From positions 1-64,000 of the IMG/VR virus record IMGVR_UViG_3300014204_000010: DNA of 64,000 nucleotides, one strand, 5' to 3'. Shown here one piece after another: positions 11,904-21,748 of this stretch. The DNA comes from a virus (lineage: Duplodnaviria; Caudoviricetes). Made by a program: the position numbers and the translations under genes. Under the pieces are notes generated by a model. That model was not told the DNA's origin and did not search any database. It worked only from the letters and a program-made list of their open reading frames with translations. Each line of letters opens with the position of its first letter. Position 1 is the stretch's first letter.

Positions 11904-12515
11904 ATGAATCGAATTTTTGTATTTGGAGATAGTCATTCTTATCATGGTTGGGTACAGGTACCGACTCTTCTACCGGAAGCTGCCATTCATATTAGACATC
12001 TAGGTCCAATCTTAATGTACTCTCTAAGGAATGGAATCCTGAGAAGGGTTACCAGGGAGGGAATCCTCCCCGATGATCTTATCGTCTTCTGTTTCGGAGA
12101 GATTGACGTCCGTTGTCACATTCACAAATTCAAGGATCAAGGAATCCAGAACATTGTAGACGATTTGGTTACCCATTATTTCTTGGCAGTACAGGAGGCT
12201 ATGAATCATTTCCCCGAAACAAAGGTGGGGATTTACTTCGTACCTCCTGCTACCAAGAAAGAAAACATAGTAGACAATCCTGACTTCCCTTGGTTGGGAG
12301 AAGACTCAGAACGCTTGAATTATACCAGAACTCTAAACAAAACTCTGGGGGAAAGATGTGAGGAAGAAGGTTACTTATTTATTGACCTCACAGAATGGTA
12401 TGAAGATGATGAAGGTTTTCTCCGACTAGACATGGCGGAAAAGGACGGTCCGCACATTCAGGATGCTTCACCCTTAGTGAACTTCCTGCAAAGATTGATA
12501 AAGGAGGATGAATGA
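11904..12515 (+). CDS. SGNH/GDSL-like hydrolase or acyltransferase
   Basis: FVFGDSHS (block I), FCFGEID, DGPH (DxxH). Confidence 0.75.
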   Translation: MNRIFVFGDSHSYHGWVQVPTLLPEAAIHIRHLGPILMYSLRNGILRRVTREGILPDDLIVFCFGEIDVRCHIHKFKDQGIQNIVDDLVTHYFLAVQEAMNHFPETKVGIYFVPPATKKENIVDNPDFPWLGEDSERLNYTRTLNKTLGERCEEEGYLFIDLTEWYEDDEGFLRLDMAEKDGPHIQDASPLVNFLQRLIKEDE

Positions 12516-12934
12516 TTTCCGTTTGTAGAACATTTACTTTTGAGGCAGCTCACCAACTTCCCAGATACGATGGGAAGTGTAGTCAGGTTCACGGTCATAG
12601 TTACAAGCTTGAGGTAGAAATAGCCTGCCCGGTGTCCCTACTGAATGGGTACTTAGACCCTCAAGATGCTATGGTTGTGGACTTCAATACATTAGAATCG
12701 GTCGTAAACAATGAGGTCATTCGGTTATTGGATCACCAAATGATAAATAACCAGATCGACATAGCTGAACCCACAGCGGAAATGCTGGTGTTATGGATAG
12801 TCGAAATACTGAAGAAGGCAGTATGGTCGTATTCTAACCCGGATAGAAAAAGTGTACACCTAAACAGAATCCGTCTGTACGAGACGGAGAAATGCTATGC
12901 AGAATGGAGGGAAACAGATCGGGATGAGAATTGA
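12512..12934 (+). CDS. queD: 6-carboxy-5,6,7,8-tetrahydropterin synthase
   Basis: FEAAHQL, CSQVHGHSY, LDH, PTAE, LYETEK. Confidence 0.95.
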   Translation: MISVCRTFTFEAAHQLPRYDGKCSQVHGHSYKLEVEIACPVSLLNGYLDPQDAMVVDFNTLESVVNNEVIRLLDHQMINNQIDIAEPTAEMLVLWIVEILKKAVWSYSNPDRKSVHLNRIRLYETEKCYAEWRETDRDEN

Positions 12935-13628
12935 TGTCAATTCGATTTTTTATTCAATCAACGGGGAGGTTACATCAGCCCATCAAGGAAGTCTTTGTAC
13001 GTTCATACGACTTCAGGGCTGTAACCTTCGGTGCAAGTACTGTGATACAGCCTACGCACAAGCAGCCAAACCGGGTGCTATGGGTTCCATTACAATGGAG
13101 AAGGTGGGAGAGATCGTCCAAAAATTTGGATGTTCCAATGTGACCATAACGGGAGGAGAACCCTTATTCCAGAGAGCACCTCTATCCGTGTTAATTGCAG
13201 GATTGAAGGTCATCTCCGAATATGGGGTGAAGTTTATTACCGTAGAGACAAACGGTTCCTTCAACCCGTACATAACCAACCCCTCTGAGGATTTAGCCCA
13301 TAACGTAGACTGCTGGGTAATGGACTATAAACTTCCCTGCAGCGGGGAGATGGATAAGATGAACCCGGAAAACTTCGCACTTTTAACCGAAAAGGACTTC
13401 GTGAAATTTGTCATTGCCGATGTCTTCGATATGTTTGAAGCTGTGAAGGCTATGGAGGACATTCGGAAAAGAGGATGTAAAGCGAAGTTTGCCTTTTCTC
13501 CCGTACTTAGCGGAAAAAATATGGATTATAGAGAAGCCTCCCAGGAGCTGCTTAGTTGGCTAAGCCGACTCGGCATCAAGGAAGGAATCCTAAGTTTGCA
13601 GCTTCACAAGATCATTTCGGTCGATTAA
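12924..13628 (+). CDS. queE: 7-carboxy-7-deazaguanine synthase (radical SAM)
   Basis: FYSINGE, FIRLQGCNLRCKYCDT, ITGGEP, VETNGS, LSLQLHK. Confidence 0.95.
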   Translation: MRIDVNSIFYSINGEVTSAHQGSLCTFIRLQGCNLRCKYCDTAYAQAAKPGAMGSITMEKVGEIVQKFGCSNVTITGGEPLFQRAPLSVLIAGLKVISEYGVKFITVETNGSFNPYITNPSEDLAHNVDCWVMDYKLPCSGEMDKMNPENFALLTEKDFVKFVIADVFDMFEAVKAMEDIRKRGCKAKFAFSPVLSGKNMDYREASQELLSWLSRLGIKEGILSLQLHKIISVD

Positions 13629-13655
13629 ACTTTTTTTGGACCAGGGCAAAAAAAT

Positions 13656-13685
13656 CAGCGGGTTTTAAAAAAATTGTGCTATAAT
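13656..13685 (+). promoter_or_regulatory. Extended -10 promoter, CNNCGG class
   Basis: CAGCGGG ... TGCTATAAT; preceded by a T7/A7 inverted repeat at 13631-13654. Confidence 0.75.
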
Positions 13686-13741
13686 GAGATTAAATCAGTT
13701 ACAAAATCCATAGCATCACAAACCAAAAAGGAGGCAACAAA

Positions 13742-14380
13742 ATGAAAGCGTTAGACCAAATCGACGTAGCCAGACTTAAGGCTGCAATCGAAGCCTTGAA
13801 CAAGGCAACCTTCAAAACTGAGGACGGCACCGAAAAGAAATTTGTTGAACAGAATTTGAAAACGGTAGCCATAACGAAGGCAAACATGCTGGACAGCTTC
13901 GTAAAAGCTGTCGAGGGTATGGATGAAAAAATTGCAGAGAATCTGCCCGAGGTAGTATCGAAGTTTTACAATGTGTTCGTCTCCGAGGCAGAAGAAGACG
14001 ATCAGCCGGCACCGGTACCCGCAGCCAAGAAGGAAAAGAAACCCAAGGAACCGAAAGCTCCGAAAGAAAAGAAACCCAAGAAAGAGAAAGCAGTTTTGTC
14101 TGAATACGGACACAAACAGGGAAGTCAGGCCGCAAAGCTTGATGATCTCCTCAAAGAAGGTGGCCATACTGTAGACGAAATGGCCCAGATTTCGGGAAGA
14201 ACGACCCTCGGAGTGAGAAGTCACATTCAGCATCTCCGTAATGATCGGAAACTGGTCATCGAAGAGACGGAAGACCATAAGTTCCAGGTCAAAGGCCCGG
14301 CCCCTGCAGCAGCCCCGGCAGCCACAGCAGCCCCGGCAGCAGCACCCGCCGCAGTAGAAGAAGCAGCCAAAACCGAGTAA
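13742..14380 (+). CDS. Putative histone-like or nucleoid-associated DNA-binding protein
   Basis: KKEKKPKEPKAPKEKK tract, HTH (HTVDEMAQISGRTTLGVRSHIQHLR), Ala/Pro tail; own promoter and AAGGAGG SD. Confidence 0.6.
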   Translation: MKALDQIDVARLKAAIEALNKATFKTEDGTEKKFVEQNLKTVAITKANMLDSFVKAVEGMDEKIAENLPEVVSKFYNVFVSEAEEDDQPAPVPAAKKEKKPKEPKAPKEKKPKKEKAVLSEYGHKQGSQAAKLDDLLKEGGHTVDEMAQISGRTTLGVRSHIQHLRNDRKLVIEETEDHKFQVKGPAPAAAPAATAAPAAAPAAVEEAAKTE

Positions 14381-14383
14381 ACA

Positions 14384-14965
14384 ATGAATAAGGACGCCAC
14401 AGAAAAACATTTAATGTTGATGTTGACGGAAGGTCTGGGTCTTGACCTCACAGACTCAGACCTTCGTGGCACCCCTGAGAGGGTTGCCCGGATGTATGCG
14501 GACGAGTTCTTTGCTAACAATTCTGGAAAAACACCTAAACCCAGAATACAACTTAGTCCCAATAAGAACTACACAGGAATTATTGTCCGGGATAACATTC
14601 CGTTTGTTTCTATATGTGCCCATCATCTACTTCCTTTCTCAGGAGTAGCCCATCTTATGTATATCCCTGATAAACATCTTGTGGGTGCATCTAAACCATC
14701 AAGGATAATCCAGTATTTCGCAAAGAAACCCCAGTTACAGGAATACTTGAGTGCAGAGGTTCTGGACTATTTTTGTTGCAAAGTCCAGCCCTTAGGGGCA
14801 ATGCTGATCATAAGAGCTGTTCACGGTTGCATCTCTTGTAGGGGGGCAAAGGACGGCAATTCCTCAGGTATGATAACCTCAGAAGTTCGTGGGTCATTCG
14901 CCGAGAATCTTTCCACTAGAATGGAAGGCTTAATGTTATTGAAAACTATGAGTCCAGTCCTATGA
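14384..14965 (+). CDS. folE: GTP cyclohydrolase I
   Basis: GTPERVARMY, SICAHHLLPFSG, QLQE, HGCISCRG. Confidence 0.95.
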   Translation: MNKDATEKHLMLMLTEGLGLDLTDSDLRGTPERVARMYADEFFANNSGKTPKPRIQLSPNKNYTGIIVRDNIPFVSICAHHLLPFSGVAHLMYIPDKHLVGASKPSRIIQYFAKKPQLQEYLSAEVLDYFCCKVQPLGAMLIIRAVHGCISCRGAKDGNSSGMITSEVRGSFAENLSTRMEGLMLLKTMSPVL

Positions 14966-15138
14966 CAGCACCCTATCCGGATTTTGAATTAATAGAATGC
15001 CTAAGAAAGAAGTTTGTTGAGTTTTCGGTCGATAATCTCACGAGGGACGAGGTTATCGACCTGATCAATCATATGTACCAAGCGATACAGGTTAAAGATC
15101 GGGAAATAATAGAACTTAGAGGAGTCATGAGAACATGA
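14962..15138 (+). CDS. Hypothetical 58-aa protein
   Basis: Hand-translated; ATGA overlaps at both ends. Confidence 0.55.
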   Translation: MTAPYPDFELIECLRKKFVEFSVDNLTRDEVIDLINHMYQAIQVKDREIIELRGVMRT

Positions 15139-15404
15139 ATGCTTCCGAGATTAAGTGGATTCCTATCGAATCCTCAAGCATCGTCAAATCTATAGCCTAC
15201 CATAAACCAAGTCTTTTCATCAAGTTTAAAAACGACCGTATGTACCAATACTTTACAGTCCCCGAGGGACTGTTCGAAGAACTGAAAACAGCAGAATCTA
15301 TCGGGAAGTATGTTGACAGGTATGTAAAGAAGGGTGGTTACCTCTACAAAGAAATCAAACCCAATGAGTCATTGAAACTGAGGTGGAATGAAGATGGACT
15401 ATAA
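15135..15404 (+). CDS. KTSC-domain protein
   Basis: SSSIVKSIAY, LFIKF, YQYFTVP, AESIGKY pattern. Confidence 0.85.
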   Translation: MNASEIKWIPIESSSIVKSIAYHKPSLFIKFKNDRMYQYFTVPEGLFEELKTAESIGKYVDRYVKKGGYLYKEIKPNESLKLRWNEDGL

Positions 15405-15786
15405 ACTTACGGATGAAGAATACAGAGTACTCGTCAAATGGATGGGTGAGGTTGTTCATGAGAACGCAGGACGTGATTTCTTTGGGCTTCGATGCTGTTC
15501 CTGTGGGTATGAATCTCCTGAAGAGTTAATGAACCGTCATATCCAAATAAGTAACCGGGACTTCGCTATGGCTGTAGACAAAGATGCCCTTTTCCTGAAG
15601 ATTGTGGAAAAAGATTCTTGGGTGAAGTTCCTAGACTCTGCGTCCAAACATTATGACAATTCCTCAAAGTACCACAGAAGTTTCTTTCCCGAATATGGAT
15701 TTATGGAATGGGTGTTTAACAAAGAAGATGGTTGCTACCGTCTACCCAAATTAGCTGCATTAGCAGTTAAGGAAGGAATAATATGA
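15388..15786 (+). CDS. Hypothetical protein
   Basis: 132-aa ORF in coupled operon. Confidence 0.6.
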   Translation: MKMDYKLTDEEYRVLVKWMGEVVHENAGRDFFGLRCCSCGYESPEELMNRHIQISNRDFAMAVDKDALFLKIVEKDSWVKFLDSASKHYDNSSKYHRSFFPEYGFMEWVFNKEDGCYRLPKLAALAVKEGII

Positions 15787-16217
15787 AACCACCCGATCTA
15801 ATGTTTGATGCCGAAATGCAAGAGTTCTTTCGGGAATTTATGGGGAAATGGCAGCCTTTTGACAAAGCAAGATGGGTTAATCCTGAAACTGAACTCATTT
15901 ATAGAAACAAATGGGTAGCAGATACCGGTAAACTATGGTTCTATACCCACATAGACACAACGATTGAGGTATCGGAAAATGATCCTGCACTCTATCGCAT
16001 ACCCGAAGTTTTCTCCCGAGACTTGAAGAGATGTCTTTGGCATATGGTAGACTGGACCAAAATGGAATTAGGTACGCACGACGATAGTGGTGACGTTTAC
16101 CTTTTCCTCCCCTCAGAGATAGAGGAAGGTCCATTAGAGTACGAGGTTACCTTAGAAGAAGCTCTCTTAGGAGCAATCAAATGGCAAATAGATCACGGCG
16201 TCAGACCGAAAGGATAG
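15783..16217 (+). CDS. Hypothetical protein
   Basis: 144-aa ORF in coupled operon. Confidence 0.6.
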   Translation: MKPPDLMFDAEMQEFFREFMGKWQPFDKARWVNPETELIYRNKWVADTGKLWFYTHIDTTIEVSENDPALYRIPEVFSRDLKRCLWHMVDWTKMELGTHDDSGDVYLFLPSEIEEGPLEYEVTLEEALLGAIKWQIDHGVRPKG

Positions 16218-16224
16218 GTGAGAC

Positions 16225-16548
16225 ATGTTCCGTAAGAAAATAAATCAAATTTCATCTAGTTTATGGGTGTGGTTGTTTCTTCTCTGCATGAAGAACGTAT
16301 ATTGGAAAGAAAGGGCATTCGTCGCCAATCGTACCATCATGCGGACTTGGAATGATCAGCTGGAGTTTACCTACATAGTTAGAGACATGCGAAAAGTAAA
16401 CGGTTATACCCGGGAAGAACTATTAGAGATGCTTACCATCGTAAGAATGGAAGAAGAAAGACTTCGGTGGAAATGCCCGGAACCGGATGAATCCTTGTTT
16501 CAAACAATACGGGATAGAGAAGAAAGATTAAGGAGGAGTGCAGAGTGA
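16225..16548 (+). CDS. Hypothetical protein
   Basis: 107-aa ORF, AGGTGA SD, overlaps next start. Confidence 0.6.
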   Translation: MFRKKINQISSSLWVWLFLLCMKNVYWKERAFVANRTIMRTWNDQLEFTYIVRDMRKVNGYTREELLEMLTIVRMEEERLRWKCPEPDESLFQTIRDREERLRRSAE

Positions 16549-17537
16549 AGATAACTAAGGCGGAGATTCTTTGGTCAAGAAAATGTCATCTTTCCTGTAG
16601 CTTTTGTAAAATGGTTACGGGAAAAGCAAACACAGTTCCATTAATATATTGGATATATACCATTCTTCAGCTCAAGAAGCTGGGTTGTGGTTTCATTGCC
16701 TTCTACGGAGCCGAACCCCTCATTGAGATGGAGAAACTTGCAGAAGCAATCGGTTTCAGTGAGAAGATGGGTATCCCCACAACTGTCATCACTAGCGGAG
16801 TCGTTCCAGGATTCCTGAGCAAACTGCAACTTCTACACAAGGAAGGTCTTAGATCGCTAACGATGTCCTACGACATCCAACCGTATGACAAATTTAGTCG
16901 AACAAAAAGCAATGTTGCGATAGAAAGTCTGGAATACTTCAAATCCCTCGGTCATACCCGTGATGTCGCTGTAGTCGTAACTCTTACTCGCAACAACTAC
17001 AAGAAGCTTGCCGACACAATAAGGATGCTCTCCCACAAAGGTATCTGGACGCTGTTTGACTTCATTCATCCCGACAGAGGTCAACCAGGAAGCAAGTGTT
17101 CTTCCACAGATAACAAGAAACTGTTCTTTACCGAGAAAGATAAGAAAGACCTAGTTCAGGTTGTGGATGAATTGATATACCTGAAGCGACAAGGTTTTCT
17201 CCTGCATGCCAGTCTCAGCTTCCTGAAGGATATAAAGAGTCAGGACTACTGGTATAAACACGATTGGAATTGCCTCACATCAAATCTCTGGGGTTTCCCT
17301 TCTTGGGTGACCATTGATTGTGACGGAAAGGTTTATGCTTGTGATGACTTCCAACCCCAGTACAGTCCTGAAATATATGGATGGGAGATTGCAGATAAGT
17401 GGCTTGATTTTGTCTCGGAACATAAGCGTTTGGTTGCAAGTCTTTGTCCCGGGTGTGCTTGGAGTTCTCATATCGACGCCCATCTTATTAAGGTCGGTAT
17501 AGAGAATATCTCTGACTATACCCATTCAAGAAAGTAG
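16545..17537 (+). CDS. Radical SAM enzyme with SPASM/Twitch-like C-terminus, function unknown
   Basis: CHLSCSFC (CxxxCxxC), YGAEPL, TIDCDGKVYACDD, CPGC. Confidence 0.88.
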   Translation: MKITKAEILWSRKCHLSCSFCKMVTGKANTVPLIYWIYTILQLKKLGCGFIAFYGAEPLIEMEKLAEAIGFSEKMGIPTTVITSGVVPGFLSKLQLLHKEGLRSLTMSYDIQPYDKFSRTKSNVAIESLEYFKSLGHTRDVAVVVTLTRNNYKKLADTIRMLSHKGIWTLFDFIHPDRGQPGSKCSSTDNKKLFFTEKDKKDLVQVVDELIYLKRQGFLLHASLSFLKDIKSQDYWYKHDWNCLTSNLWGFPSWVTIDCDGKVYACDDFQPQYSPEIYGWEIADKWLDFVSEHKRLVASLCPGCAWSSHIDAHLIKVGIENISDYTHSRK

Positions 17538-17546
17538 GCGTAAACT

Positions 17547-17864
17547 ATGTCCAGACCAGAACGTAAAGAAGAAATAATCCGTATTCGGCAAGAGGGCTAT
17601 GACGCAGCTAAAGCCGGAAAGCATGTTCAATCTTGCCCCAGAGAATATCTCCATTCAACAAATCAGGAGCAATGGGAGACAGGATACAGAAACTACCAAA
17701 TGGAAGCAAATAAGCTGAGGCGTGAAAACAAAATAGGGAGGATAGCAGATAGGGTGTGCTATATACTAAATAATTATAACATTTGGAAGGAGTCCGAAAT
17801 CGAACGGGTTATGGTTGAATCCGAAATCGAAAGCATAATTGAAATATGGGAAGGGGAATCATGA
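17547..17864 (+). CDS. Hypothetical protein (RMF-like GY..G..G..CP....W..GY pattern)
   Basis: QEGYDAAKAGK..SCP...QWETGY. Confidence 0.55.
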   Translation: MSRPERKEEIIRIRQEGYDAAKAGKHVQSCPREYLHSTNQEQWETGYRNYQMEANKLRRENKIGRIADRVCYILNNYNIWKESEIERVMVESEIESIIEIWEGES

Positions 17865-18151
17865 GGAGTTTATGTGAAGTCTGTCATAAAAGGAAATCCG
17901 TAGGAGTGGCTTCAGTACCCGGAGTTCCGATGTCAGTAGCCTACTGTCGTCATTGTCTGTTAAACGATCTTCAGCCCATGGAAGTACTTATAGCTCACAC
18001 GGCTTGTGGGGGAGAAAGTTTGGCAACCTCAATAAGCTGGTGGAGATTACTTGTTATTCATAATCTCCTGGAACAAGGTTGTACTCTTCAATGGTTCAAT
18101 AGTCAAGTCCTTGAATATTCCGACTTTGTAAACGAGCTTATGGAAAGCTAA
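17861..18151 (+). CDS. Small zinc-binding protein
   Basis: CEVC and CRHC pairs; coupled upstream of queC. Confidence 0.6.
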   Translation: MRSLCEVCHKRKSVGVASVPGVPMSVAYCRHCLLNDLQPMEVLIAHTACGGESLATSISWWRLLVIHNLLEQGCTLQWFNSQVLEYSDFVNELMES

Positions 18152-18167
18152 TATAAGGAGGATTAAG

Positions 18168-18863
18168 ATGATTTTATTATTTTCAGGAGGAGTGGACAGC
18201 TTCATAGCCTACCATCTATTGTCAAAGAGACACAAGGTGGATACCCTTTACATTGACTGTGGTACTCCTTATTCTCATAAGGAAATAAGTGCCGTAAAGA
18301 GACTTGTACCGTCAACCATAATCGAAACAATTTCGTCTATAGGAAATAGACAGTTAGACGGAGTAAATGCCTATGTCCCGTTCCGCAACCTCTACTTAGC
18401 CATGTTTGCAAGTTATTATGCTGAAGATCGCATGATAGCTATGGCGGGATTGAAGGATGATAACGTCAGCGACAAGACACCGCAGGCATTTAAGCTAATG
18501 ACAGATTGCTTAAATCAGCTTGACCCACAACTGGATAAACCTTATCTCATATTCAGTCCCTTCTGGTCTCATACTAAAGAGCAGATTGTGGAATGGTACA
18601 TGAAAAGGGTGGGGGACAAGAAAGCTCTTTTGGATACCGTGTCTTGCTATGTTCCGGGTATTCAATATTGTGGTAAATGTCCGGCTTGCTTCCGTAAGTG
18701 GACGGCTTTTTTTTGTAACGGAATTTATGACCTCCCCGTACCCAACAGAACCCTAGCTCTTGGTTACTATGAAAGAGCTAAGGAGAAAATGTACGTCCAG
18801 GAAAGAAATGAGTCGATCATCAAAGCTGTGACAAAAGCTGAGGCTATGAAACTATGGAATTAA
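18168..18863 (+). CDS. queC: 7-cyano-7-deazaguanine (preQ0) synthase
   Basis: LFSGGVDS PP-loop, YVPFRN, SCY...CGKCPAC; no glutamine amidotransferase domain. Confidence 0.93.
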   Translation: MILLFSGGVDSFIAYHLLSKRHKVDTLYIDCGTPYSHKEISAVKRLVPSTIIETISSIGNRQLDGVNAYVPFRNLYLAMFASYYAEDRMIAMAGLKDDNVSDKTPQAFKLMTDCLNQLDPQLDKPYLIFSPFWSHTKEQIVEWYMKRVGDKKALLDTVSCYVPGIQYCGKCPACFRKWTAFFCNGIYDLPVPNRTLALGYYERAKEKMYVQERNESIIKAVTKAEAMKLWN

Positions 18864-19474: not shown

Positions 19475-20347
19475 ATGAAATTCAAAATCTTCCTGGATTC
19501 CGGTGCATTTAGTGCCTTCATGAACAAAGCGACTGTTTCTCTCCAGAACTACATCGACTATATTCTGGAGAATGAGCAATACATCGAGACCTACGCTTGT
19601 CTTGACGACATCGGATCTCCTGAGAAAACATGGGAGAATCAAAGGGAGATGGAGAGACAGGGGCTGAGTCCTCTCCCCGTCTATCATATGGGAGAACCCG
19701 AAGAGTTCTTCCAACGAGTTCTTGAGTATCCTCACTTTGCAGTCGGAGGGATTGCTTCAAGCGTAAAGGGTTCTGGTTCCTTACAAAACCATCTGGACAT
19801 TCTCTTCTCCCGCATCTGTACTGAAAAGACAGATTATTATCCCTCTCATAAAGTTCATGGTTTCGGTATAGCTATTCCTCAACTGATAGCCCGCTATCCT
19901 TTCTACAGTATTGACACAAGTTCCTGGGTTGCTTATGGAAAGTATGGAATCATCCTAGTTCCTAGAAAAGTACACGGGAAACTGAGGTTTGATGTTTCCC
20001 CCTACACAGTAACGGTGTCTACCCGATCGAAAGCTGTCGGAGAAGCAAAGCACTTTCAGCATCTTCCCAAGATTGAGCAAGACTGGATTATAGAATACTG
20101 TGGGAATCACGGGATGCAGATGGGTATATCCACTTTCACCAAATGTCCATTGGGGCAAAAGTTGGAGAAGAATCAACACAGGGTAAGCAAAGGCTCCGAG
20201 GATGTCGAAGTTGTACTGGAGAAGGGTCTCATAAATGATCATGAATCCAGAGACAGAATGAATCTTATCTTCTTCTTGGAAATGGAGAAACACCAACCTA
20301 AATGGCCTTGGAGATGGTATCAACAAAAGAAGGAAGGTCTTTTTTAA
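19475..20347 (+). CDS. dpdA: DpdA-like DNA-guanine transglycosylase
   Basis: FLDSGAFS, LDDIG, PVYH, AVGG, HGFG, YSIDTSSW TGT-fold motifs; clustered with que genes. Confidence 0.85.
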   Translation: MKFKIFLDSGAFSAFMNKATVSLQNYIDYILENEQYIETYACLDDIGSPEKTWENQREMERQGLSPLPVYHMGEPEEFFQRVLEYPHFAVGGIASSVKGSGSLQNHLDILFSRICTEKTDYYPSHKVHGFGIAIPQLIARYPFYSIDTSSWVAYGKYGIILVPRKVHGKLRFDVSPYTVTVSTRSKAVGEAKHFQHLPKIEQDWIIEYCGNHGMQMGISTFTKCPLGQKLEKNQHRVSKGSEDVEVVLEKGLINDHESRDRMNLIFFLEMEKHQPKWPWRWYQQKKEGLF

Positions 20348-20349
20348 AA

Positions 20350-20547
20350 ATGATCCTCTATCTATCCGGGAACTTCCCGCAATTAGCCAAGATTGAAAAA
20401 GAAGATGCAATGATAGAATGGATGAGGGAACATGACTACGACTATCACCGTTTAATTACCTTTTTTTATAAAGATGACTGTGATAGAGTGTTTCAAAACG
20501 TAAAAACCAAACGAAAACCGACATTTATAAGGAGGAACGAGAAATAG
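20350..20547 (+). CDS. 65-aa protein resembling the N-terminal segment of DpdA-like proteins
   Basis: MILYLSG...RLITFFY; starts 2 nt after dpdA stop; ORF is real, function is inference. Confidence 0.55.
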   Translation: MILYLSGNFPQLAKIEKEDAMIEWMREHDYDYHRLITFFYKDDCDRVFQNVKTKRKPTFIRRNEK

Positions 20548-20549
20548 AA

Positions 20550-20723
20550 ATGGATCGAGAACTTCTGGACTCCCTGGAGAAATCTGTAGCCGCAGCTAAG
20601 AAGATGTACTGGTCTCTCCGGGCAAAATCAAGCAAGAGGGAAACCCCTCATTGCAAACGCGGACAATCTCCACAAATCTCTTATAGTTACCTACAACAAA
20701 TTCAGAAAGGAGTGTTACGATAA
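20550..20723 (+). CDS. Hypothetical 57-aa protein
   Basis: Hand-translated; TAATG coupling to clamp gene. Confidence 0.5.
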   Translation: MDRELLDSLEKSVAAAKKMYWSLRAKSSKRETPHCKRGQSPQISYSYLQQIQKGVLR

Positions 20724-21748
20724 TGGTAGTAAACAGGACGGAGCTTCTGAAGATTCTGGCATCACTGAAACCAGGACTTGCTAAGAAAGAGATGGTGGAA
20801 CAGGCAACACACTTCATCTTTACCGGGGATGATGTCGTGACCTACAATGATCAGATTTGTATATCCCACCCTTATCTTTCAGGAATCAAATTCTCTGTTA
20901 AAGGAGAAGAGTTTTACAAGTGTCTGGAAGTAGCTCAAGGAGATGATGTCGATCTCATTCTCCAGGAAAACAAACTCAGCATCAAAGCCAAGAAGACGAA
21001 AGCGAGTCTTTCTCTGGTATTAGATGACAGGGATAGGGTAGAGTCCCACATTTCAAAAATGAAAGCCACTATGAGTGACTGGGTTCCTCTACCGTCAGAC
21101 TTTCTTTATGCTCTGTCCTTATGTTCGTTTTCGGCATCAAGGGATTTATCCACAGGCATTCTCGCTTGTGTCATGATTACCAACAACAAAGTGTTTGCCA
21201 CGGACAGGAACCGAGTAAGTCGGTTTACCTTAGAGCAAAGTCTCAATAACACCTTCTTCTTGTTTGCCAGGGACGTTCTTGAGCTTCTGAAACTTCCCGT
21301 CACAGAGTTTTGTATCCCGGAGGGGTGGGTTCACTTCAAGACCAAAGATGATGTGACTTTCAGTTGCCGAACAATTTCGGGGAGTCTACCGAATCTAAAC
21401 AATTTCTTCAATGTGGAAGGTCCTACAATAAAGCTTCCAGACGACTTGAAGGAATCTGTAGACGCGGTAATCTTCATGACCAAAGGTGACAGTGAATCTT
21501 CCAGATTTATTGAAGTAGCTATCACTGAAGGTAAGTTGACTGTCAAAGGTGAAAAAGAAAGAGGTTGGATTGAGAAGATGGTTAACATCGACTACAAGGA
21601 TGAACCCATCACTTTCAGGATTAATCCTAACTTTCTCTCTCAGATACTTGAAAGATCAGCGAATATAACCGTCGGGAGAAAAGCGGTGTACTTCAATACC
21701 GAAAAATTCGAACATGTTATTGCACTAGTTCTTATGGAGACGGCATAA
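20723..21748 (+). CDS. dnaN: DNA polymerase sliding clamp (beta-like)
   Basis: 341 aa; three-domain pattern, FATDRNR, INPNFLSQIL; adjacent to polymerase. Confidence 0.85.
   Translation: MVVNRTELLKILASLKPGLAKKEMVEQATHFIFTGDDVVTYNDQICISHPYLSGIKFSVKGEEFYKCLEVAQGDDVDLILQENKLSIKAKKTKASLSLVLDDRDRVESHISKMKATMSDWVPLPSDFLYALSLCSFSASRDLSTGILACVMITNNKVFATDRNRVSRFTLEQSLNNTFFLFARDVLELLKLPVTEFCIPEGWVHFKTKDDVTFSCRTISGSLPNLNNFFNVEGPTIKLPDDLKESVDAVIFMTKGDSESSRFIEVAITEGKLTVKGEKERGWIEKMVNIDYKDEPITFRINPNFLSQILERSANITVGRKAVYFNTEKFEHVIALVLMETA

Follow-up and report, generated by a model that had tools for sequence, protein, structure and literature searches.

A phage DpdA without the first quarter of its barrel is probably completed by the 65-residue product of the next gene

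Introduction

How can a DNA transglycosylase be built when its gene begins directly at the catalytic strand of the barrel? The stretch of DNA that raises this question, hereafter the window, comprises 64,000 nucleotides (positions 1 to 64,000 of the IMG/VR record IMGVR_UViG_3300014204_000010, a virus of the Duplodnaviria; Caudoviricetes), and its source is a complete virus record of 89,373 bp with direct terminal repeats, rated 100% by CheckV. In the window, a DpdA gene starts abruptly at MKFKIFLDSGAF, and the ATG of a small ORF lies two nucleotides after its stop codon. From these features, both of which are there in the sequence, an earlier note proposed that the missing N-terminal barrel segment of DpdA is the next gene, and that the enzyme is either two-chained or, through a -1 slip or a one-base assembly error, circularly permuted. 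The present study reveals that homology, structure models, gene linkage, and natural fusions at either end of DpdA support the first of these proposals. We consider it probable that the phage builds its DNA 7-deazaguanine transglycosylase from two polypeptides, a DpdA core and a small cap, which would assemble into one active enzyme.

Results

A DpdA gene that begins at the catalytic strand

The ORF at positions 19475 to 20347 (plus strand; 290 aa; TAA stop at 20345-20347) begins directly at the catalytic FLDSGAF strand, as read from the sequence. Its product matches PHROG 887 (queuine tRNA-ribosyltransferase) with an E-value of 2e-37 from profile position 57 on, and tblastn retrieved 183 phage records with 36 to 41% identity over ~200 residues, including annotated DpdA/TGT genes of Queuovirinae; Pfam and NCBIfam gave no match. 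Four residues, D8, D44, H128, and D147, are invariant in an alignment of 82 homologues. Specifically, D8 falls on Asp102 of TGT and Asp95 of bacterial DpdA by ungapped offset from the structure-aligned ranges. These two residues serve as the general acid/base, and the roles of the conserved residues are taken from the structural study of bacterial DpdA (PMC10164549). The catalytic Asp pair, as well as the base-recognising Asp and His, are all present in the core. A conserved cysteine cluster or CxCx2C...H zinc motif was not found in the 82-sequence alignment, where only C115 is nearly invariant. Judged by its sequence, the ORF is a phage DpdA, i.e., a DNA transglycosylase of the TGT superfamily, and base exchange on DNA is its predicted function. 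The window DpdA was found on two contigs, which may or may not be independent assemblies.

Among the 120 best metagenomic homologues, 105 start within a few residues of the FLDSGAF motif, as the window DpdA does, and 15 carry an N-terminal segment before it (long form). In the DpdAs of Pseudomonas phage NP1, Rhizobium phage RHEph04, and Klebsiella phage K4PH164, ~58 residues (M.[IL][YF].A[AG] ... [IF]LESYHY) stand ahead of VFLDSGAF. The N-terminal pattern that the earlier note had described for many phage DpdA-like proteins thus holds in these three phages and in the 15 long-form homologues. Edwardsiella phage vB_EpM_ZHS (OM621816.1; L001, ~1372-1486) was considered as a counter-example, an isolate whose DpdA is short and has no cap beside it, and was dropped, as an in-frame MILWPGG... 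lies upstream, right after the folE stop. The start annotated for this DpdA probably lies downstream of the true one, and the sequence ahead of it would supply the N-terminal module. Separately, two relatives (L017 and L018, ~1676-2586) carry a DpdA core with an insertion of ~300 aa, starting with Cys and ending in ...GN just before the SVDSSSW nucleophile motif, which resembles an intein placed at the catalytic site.

At its other end, the window DpdA terminates in WPWRWYQQKKEGLF, which fits the usual family ending WPW-x(9-13)-[LF]F; this ending lies within three residues of the terminus in 54 of 124 DpdA homologues. More broadly, either WPW-x(9-13)-[LF]F or GFGL occurs at or near the C-terminus in the window (20306-20347) and in homologues (P0009-P0127). 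The DpdA gene usually adjoins a phage sliding-clamp gene, which fits the idea that the DpdA tail may be a clamp-binding peptide.

A preQ0 pathway upstream and replication genes downstream

Upstream of DpdA and on the same (plus) strand, the window encodes the preQ0 pathway enzymes QueD (12512-12934), QueE (12897-13628), FolE (14384-14965), and QueC (18168-18863), together with a second radical SAM enzyme (16545-17537) and a HAD phosphatase. Pfam matches in this block (12512-18863) are PTPS (1.8e-32), Radical_SAM (2.9e-13), GTP_cyclohydroI (8.4e-43), and QueC (5.9e-16). Since a full preQ0 pathway would be useless without an active DpdA, the genome context favors a functional two-chain DpdA. Directly downstream of the DpdA region lies a sliding-clamp-like gene (20723-21748, plus strand) with a weak Pfam DNA_pol3_beta_3 match, followed by a PolA-type polymerase gene. 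Relatives retain this gene order (DpdA, small gene, clamp, PolA), and annotated processivity factors occupy the position of the clamp gene in NP1, RHEph04, K4PH164, and the related contig L013. Between the small gene and the clamp gene, a 57-aa ORF (20550-20723) matches nothing in Pfam or PHROGs.

The small ORF resembles the N-terminal module of full-length DpdAs

The small ORF (20350-20547, plus strand) encodes 65 aa reading MILYLSGNFPQL...RLITFFY. Its predicted layout is β1 (MILYLSG), a GNFPQL loop, α1, β2 (RLITFFY), α2, and a basic tail. In a search of 1.84 billion representative proteins, 41 other proteins matched it at E ≤ 1e-3, nearly all of them 56 to 152 aa long and aligned from residue 1. 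The family so defined (~40 cluster representatives) shares the motif M.[IL]YLAGNFPQ[LM]..KE...Y.RL.[TS][FY][FY]Y, in which G7, F9, P10, E18, Y32, and R34 are invariant. The shared motif and the alignment of the homologues from residue 1 indicate that the small ORF is a real conserved protein and that 20350 is its conserved start.

Several comparisons connect this family with the N-terminal quarter of full-length DpdAs. By BLASTP, residues 1-56 of the small ORF align without gaps to residues 1-56 of the DpdA of L035, in which the module is fused to the N-terminus (32% identity, E 4e-7), and residues 3-48 align to the C-terminal residues 297-342 of the DpdA P0066 (37% identity, E 5e-8). The HMM of the small family likewise matches the N-terminal 56 residues of the L035 DpdA and the C-terminal 50 to 56 residues of the DpdAs P0066, P0107, and P0062. 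Profile-profile comparison (hhalign) of the small family gave a probability of 96.5% (E 8.5e-10) against the more distant long-form N-termini and 94.5% against full-length long-form DpdAs, and the joint alignment of the small family with the long-form N-termini is clean. A plain HMM built from 18 long-form N-termini alone ranked the small ORF second among 1854 window ORFs with an E-value of 0.037, which is weak and unconvincing by itself. Taken as sequence homology, these matches identify the small ORF with the N-terminal module of full-length phage DpdAs.

The small ORF has no match in Pfam, NCBIfam, or PHROGs, tblastn against 50,697 phage records returned nothing credible, and a search of a genome collection yielded two MAG contigs only. 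The family therefore seems essentially confined to uncultured phages. Some homologues of the small ORF (among P0141, P0145, P0161, and P0136) have long acidic C-terminal extensions ending in ...QTNLF, ...QTTLF, or ...NLNLF. Because such endings are similar to clamp-binding motifs, the small chain may be the one that bears the tail in some phages.

Structure models match the module to the part missing from the core

Sequence searches of the PDB, with the single sequence and with a profile, gave one weak match only (7ui4, E 0.16), and a fold comparison was therefore needed; a search of the ESM Atlas gave no usable match. The AF2 model of the window DpdA core, built from the 82-sequence alignment, has a pLDDT of 92.2, a pTM of 0.86, and six parallel barrel strands. 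When compared with TGT, QTRT1, and bacterial DpdA, it aligned over 201 to 218 residues with Z 12.1-12.6 and rmsd 3.2-3.9 Å, and its residue 1 fell on residue 95 of Zymomonas mobilis TGT, 98 of human QTRT1, and 88 of bacterial DpdA 7ui4 (VIA-align). According to the model, the core would consist of barrel units β3 to β8 and the C-terminal subdomain, without β1-α1-β2-α2.

The model of the N-fused L035 DpdA (pLDDT 95, pTM 0.91) contains eight barrel strands, and its alignment begins at residue 40 of TGT and at residue 4 of 7ui4 (Z 18.4-18.6). Its residues 1-55 form a strand (2-5), a helix (15-29), a strand (32-37), and a helix (38-53), after which comes the LFLDSG strand. On these models, the module corresponds to TGT residues 40-94, i.e., β1-α1-β2-α2, which is exactly what the window DpdA is predicted to be without. 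Eight strands of a TGT-type barrel are not present in the single chain of the window DpdA, and are reached only by counting in the small ORF product. Thus, when both ORFs are set against full-length DpdAs as the earlier note had suggested, the small ORF aligns with their N-termini and the core, with six strands, starts where the module ends.

The small gene accompanies DpdA across diverged phages

A DpdA accompanies the small family on every one of the 30 viral contigs where this family was found, on the same strand and at most 3 kb away. In 28 of these loci, the small gene forms an ORF of its own downstream of DpdA; it is fused to the C-terminus of DpdA in one (L028, a true circular permutant) and to the N-terminus in another (L035). 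Three more DpdA homologues have the module at the C-terminus (P0066, P0107, and P0062), and a region-restricted search for additional C-fused forms returned the query alone. In the split loci, the gaps are -23, -4, -1 (ATGA- or GTGA-type overlaps), +7, +13, +18, +22, +37, +46, +84, and larger values reaching +1809 nt; each of the three relative frames is represented, and the junction sequences are unrelated.

A wider set of 112 DpdA loci on viral contigs comprises 66 with a downstream module only, nine with an upstream module only, four with modules on both sides, 17 with an N-fused module (10 of these with extra standalone modules), and one C-fused locus. No module was found at E < 1e-3 in the DNA examined at the remaining 15 loci, including L056 and L112, for which ~5 kb to either side was covered. 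The split pair is conserved across diverged lineages in which core identity drops to ~40%. In a FastTree phylogeny of 96 distinct DpdA cores, the window falls in a clade of 35 with SH-like support of 98, which holds 31 split-downstream forms, the N-fused L035, the C-fused L028, and two without a module, with end branches of up to ~0.9 changes per site. The 31 split forms and the long end branches indicate that the split state is old and has persisted through long divergence. It was inside this split clade that the fusions at either end originated.

The other half of the tree includes many phages with two to four paralogous standalone modules, some in tandem and some beside an N-fused DpdA. In these paralogs, β1 and β2 are conserved, and the β1/α1 loops are very different in length and sequence. 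Tandem arrays of two to four module mini-genes surround DpdA in L081 (4463-4980), L109 (4519-5017), and L087 (5793-7479), and lie upstream of DpdA in L078 and L085; some N-terminal modules in L109, L078, and L085 appear to be interrupted by a frame change or to be without a start. The contig L013 (1208-2888; the same contig as L038) has a 182-aa ORF and a gene for a 324-aa DNA methyltransferase-like protein between DpdA and the small gene, where its near-identical relatives L007 and L008 have just a 320-nt gap. The window itself showed no repeat tract that could turn the module on or off. A T7 run (20461-20467) inside the small ORF encodes the Phe-Phe-Tyr of the conserved β2 motif (TFFY); it could be slip-prone, and there is no sign of a switch role.

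These distributions bear on the possibility that the small protein is separate from the enzyme, for instance by regulating, by mimicking the N-terminal module as a decoy, or by partnering another protein, and that the short DpdA exists alone as a six-stranded partial barrel or homo-oligomer, working or not. AF2 folds the core alone with confidence and gives no signal of instability, which speaks for such an arrangement and counts against the need for a second chain. So do the multiple standalone modules of other phages, also beside complete N-fused DpdAs, and the few short-form loci with no module nearby. The standalone modules beside N-fused DpdAs further suggest that module proteins may do more than complete a missing quarter. 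Against this, the core is without exactly those two β-α units that the small protein resembles, the small family was found solely beside DpdA (30 of 30), fusions to either DpdA end exist, and the complete 89,373-bp genome holds a single DpdA and a single small gene, i.e., one module per core. Moreover, no enzyme is known to be stable as an open six-stranded barrel whose hydrophobic core lies exposed. Taken together, we regard a separate factor as improbable.

A probable translational coupling of two genes at the junction

Within the junction (20330-20352, plus strand), an SD-like sequence, AAGGAAGG (20330-20337), is followed by a T6 run (20340-20345), the TAA stop (20345-20347), a 2-nt spacer, and the ATG of the small ORF (20350-20352); an A5 run (20346-20350) directly follows the T6 run. 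No promoter-like or terminator-like site was found between DpdA and the small gene. The junction is probably a site of translational coupling.

The same stretch had suggested to the earlier note that both ORFs could yield one circularly permuted chain. Such a chain would arise either from a -1 slip of a ribosome paused at the DpdA stop (...GLF-L-K-MILYLSG) or from a true T7 that was read as T6, the two ORFs being an assembly artefact of one fused gene. The frame arithmetic of the note is correct: the small ORF lies in the -1 frame relative to DpdA, this frame is open across the junction and back to 20302, and the T6/A5 runs are prone to slippage and error. Moreover, natural C-terminal module fusions exist in other phages (L028, P0066, P0107, and P0062). 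However, in the 28 related split loci the two genes stay separate, with all three frames represented and gaps of -23 to +1809 nt, which removes the need for a frameshift or an assembly error, and several of their unrelated junctions have SD-like sites or ATGA overlaps of their own. The stop of the window DpdA looks native, since the protein ends in the usual [LF]F tail of the family, and a fused window protein would have ~13 residues from WPW to the module as opposed to ~35 to 42 in natural fusions. Furthermore, the slip site T TTT TAA is not a canonical X XXY YYZ heptamer and would permit P-site slippage only, and the predicted RNA fold downstream of the junction is not significant (z -1.26). 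Programmed -1 frameshifting was rejected, as no canonical heptamer, no significant stimulatory structure, and no conservation in relatives were found here. A single permuted chain is thus very improbable in this phage; the two-chain half of the earlier proposal is the supported one, and single-chain permutants belong to other phages. Low-level slippage or a homopolymer miscall may still affect this site, and neither is necessary to explain the locus.

Discussion

In the window phage, the DpdA core is without two barrel units, the small protein is homologous to these units, the gene pair is conserved, and natural fusions of the two exist. On this basis, we propose how two chains would make one enzyme. 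The core would provide six of the eight β-α units of a TGT-type TIM barrel along with D8, D44, H128, and D147, and the small-gene product would provide the remaining two, β1-α1-β2-α2. The two genes would be co-transcribed, and the small chain would be translated from its own ATG, 2 nt past the DpdA stop, probably by coupling. Inserted between β8 and β3 of the core, the small chain would close the barrel. Its GNFPQL loop (after β1) and the end of its RLITFFY strand (after β2) would then form part of the rim of the active site on the catalytic face. This position corresponds to the region that contacts nucleic acid beside the target guanine in bacterial DpdA and TGT, and the small chain may thus have a role in DNA recognition. 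The complex would exchange guanine in phage DNA for the preQ0-derived base supplied by the upstream FolE-QueD-QueE-QueC set.

In bacterial DpdA, the β1/α1 and β2/α2 loops add to the DNA-binding surface, flank the active site, and possibly take part in sequence recognition (PMC10164549). These loop roles, together with the two to four paralogous caps with divergent β1/α1 loops in other phages, lend support to a further, tentative idea, i.e., that the small subunit is an exchangeable specificity cap setting the DNA sequence context or the 7-deazaguanine base accepted by a common core. We consider this idea possible and, at present, rather unlikely. If it were true, splitting off the cap would let phages swap, duplicate, and diversify caps with the catalytic core untouched, and the window phage would represent the one-cap ground state of such a system. 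Besides, a cap that sets target specificity would explain how phages retune their DNA hypermodification against host restriction.

The two-chain arrangement, which we prefer, has practical consequences. Expressing such DpdAs from uncultured phages without the unannotated 65-aa gene would give an incomplete enzyme, and annotation pipelines that call "DpdA present" would overlook half of the enzyme. In addition, the series of N-fused, split, and C-fused forms in one family offers rare natural material on how barrels are assembled from β-α units and on the origin of permutation. No split or permuted DpdA is described in the two reports on phage 7-deazaguanine modification (PMC6884629 and PMC10516641) or in the structural study of bacterial DpdA (PMC10164549), and our full-text literature searches found none. 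A split DpdA with a small cap subunit is common to many uncultured phages and is in no paper that we found.

The closest known enzymes are those of the phage DpdA1 type (Enterobacteria phage 9g, CAjan, Pseudomonas NP1/iggy, and RHEph04; Hutinet 2019, PMC6884629; Cui 2023, PMC10516641), with 36 to 41% identity to the window core. They share with it the FLDSGAF, LDxIG, HGFG, and SVDS(S/T)SW motifs and the ...LF C-terminus. Their neighborhood is also alike, with preQ0 genes upstream and clamp and polymerase genes downstream. In contrast to the window, where the module is a separate gene after the core, DpdA1 enzymes are single chains with the ~58-residue module at the N-terminus.

Bacterial DpdA (Dpd restriction-modification system of S. 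Montevideo, PDB 7UI4; PMC10164549) has the same TGT-type TIM barrel and inserts preQ0 into DNA. Its structure matches the window core with Z 12.1 and the N-fused relative with Z 18.6, and the catalytic Asp pair corresponds by position. Unlike the window protein, however, the bacterial enzyme is a single chain of 413 to 436 residues that has large insertions as well as a CxCx2C...H zinc site, and it requires DpdB together with ATP (PMC10164549). The window family is without a conserved cysteine cluster in the 82-sequence alignment, and sequence identity is 14 to 16%.

The fold and the base-exchange chemistry are also common to bacterial TGT, archaeal ArcTGT, and eukaryotic QTRT1/QTRT2; in terms of the Z. 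mobilis enzyme, the module is residues 40-94 and the core is residue 95 onward. However, TGTs differ from the window DpdA in their tRNA substrate, N-terminal β-sheet lid, and zinc subdomain. Furthermore, where the eukaryotic TGT heterodimer consists of two complete barrels, the window would combine two fragments of one barrel.

Fragmented and permuted TIM barrels are known from other enzymes. The half-barrels of HisF reassemble on co-expression, and transaldolase and the GH70 glucansucrases are permuted. As in those cases, the window DpdA would form a (β/α)8 barrel from β-α units that are separately encoded or reordered. In contrast to them, the cut in the window DpdA is a natural one, lies at a 2+6 boundary, and occurs in a nucleic-acid-modifying enzyme, in whose family N-fused, split, and C-fused forms coexist.
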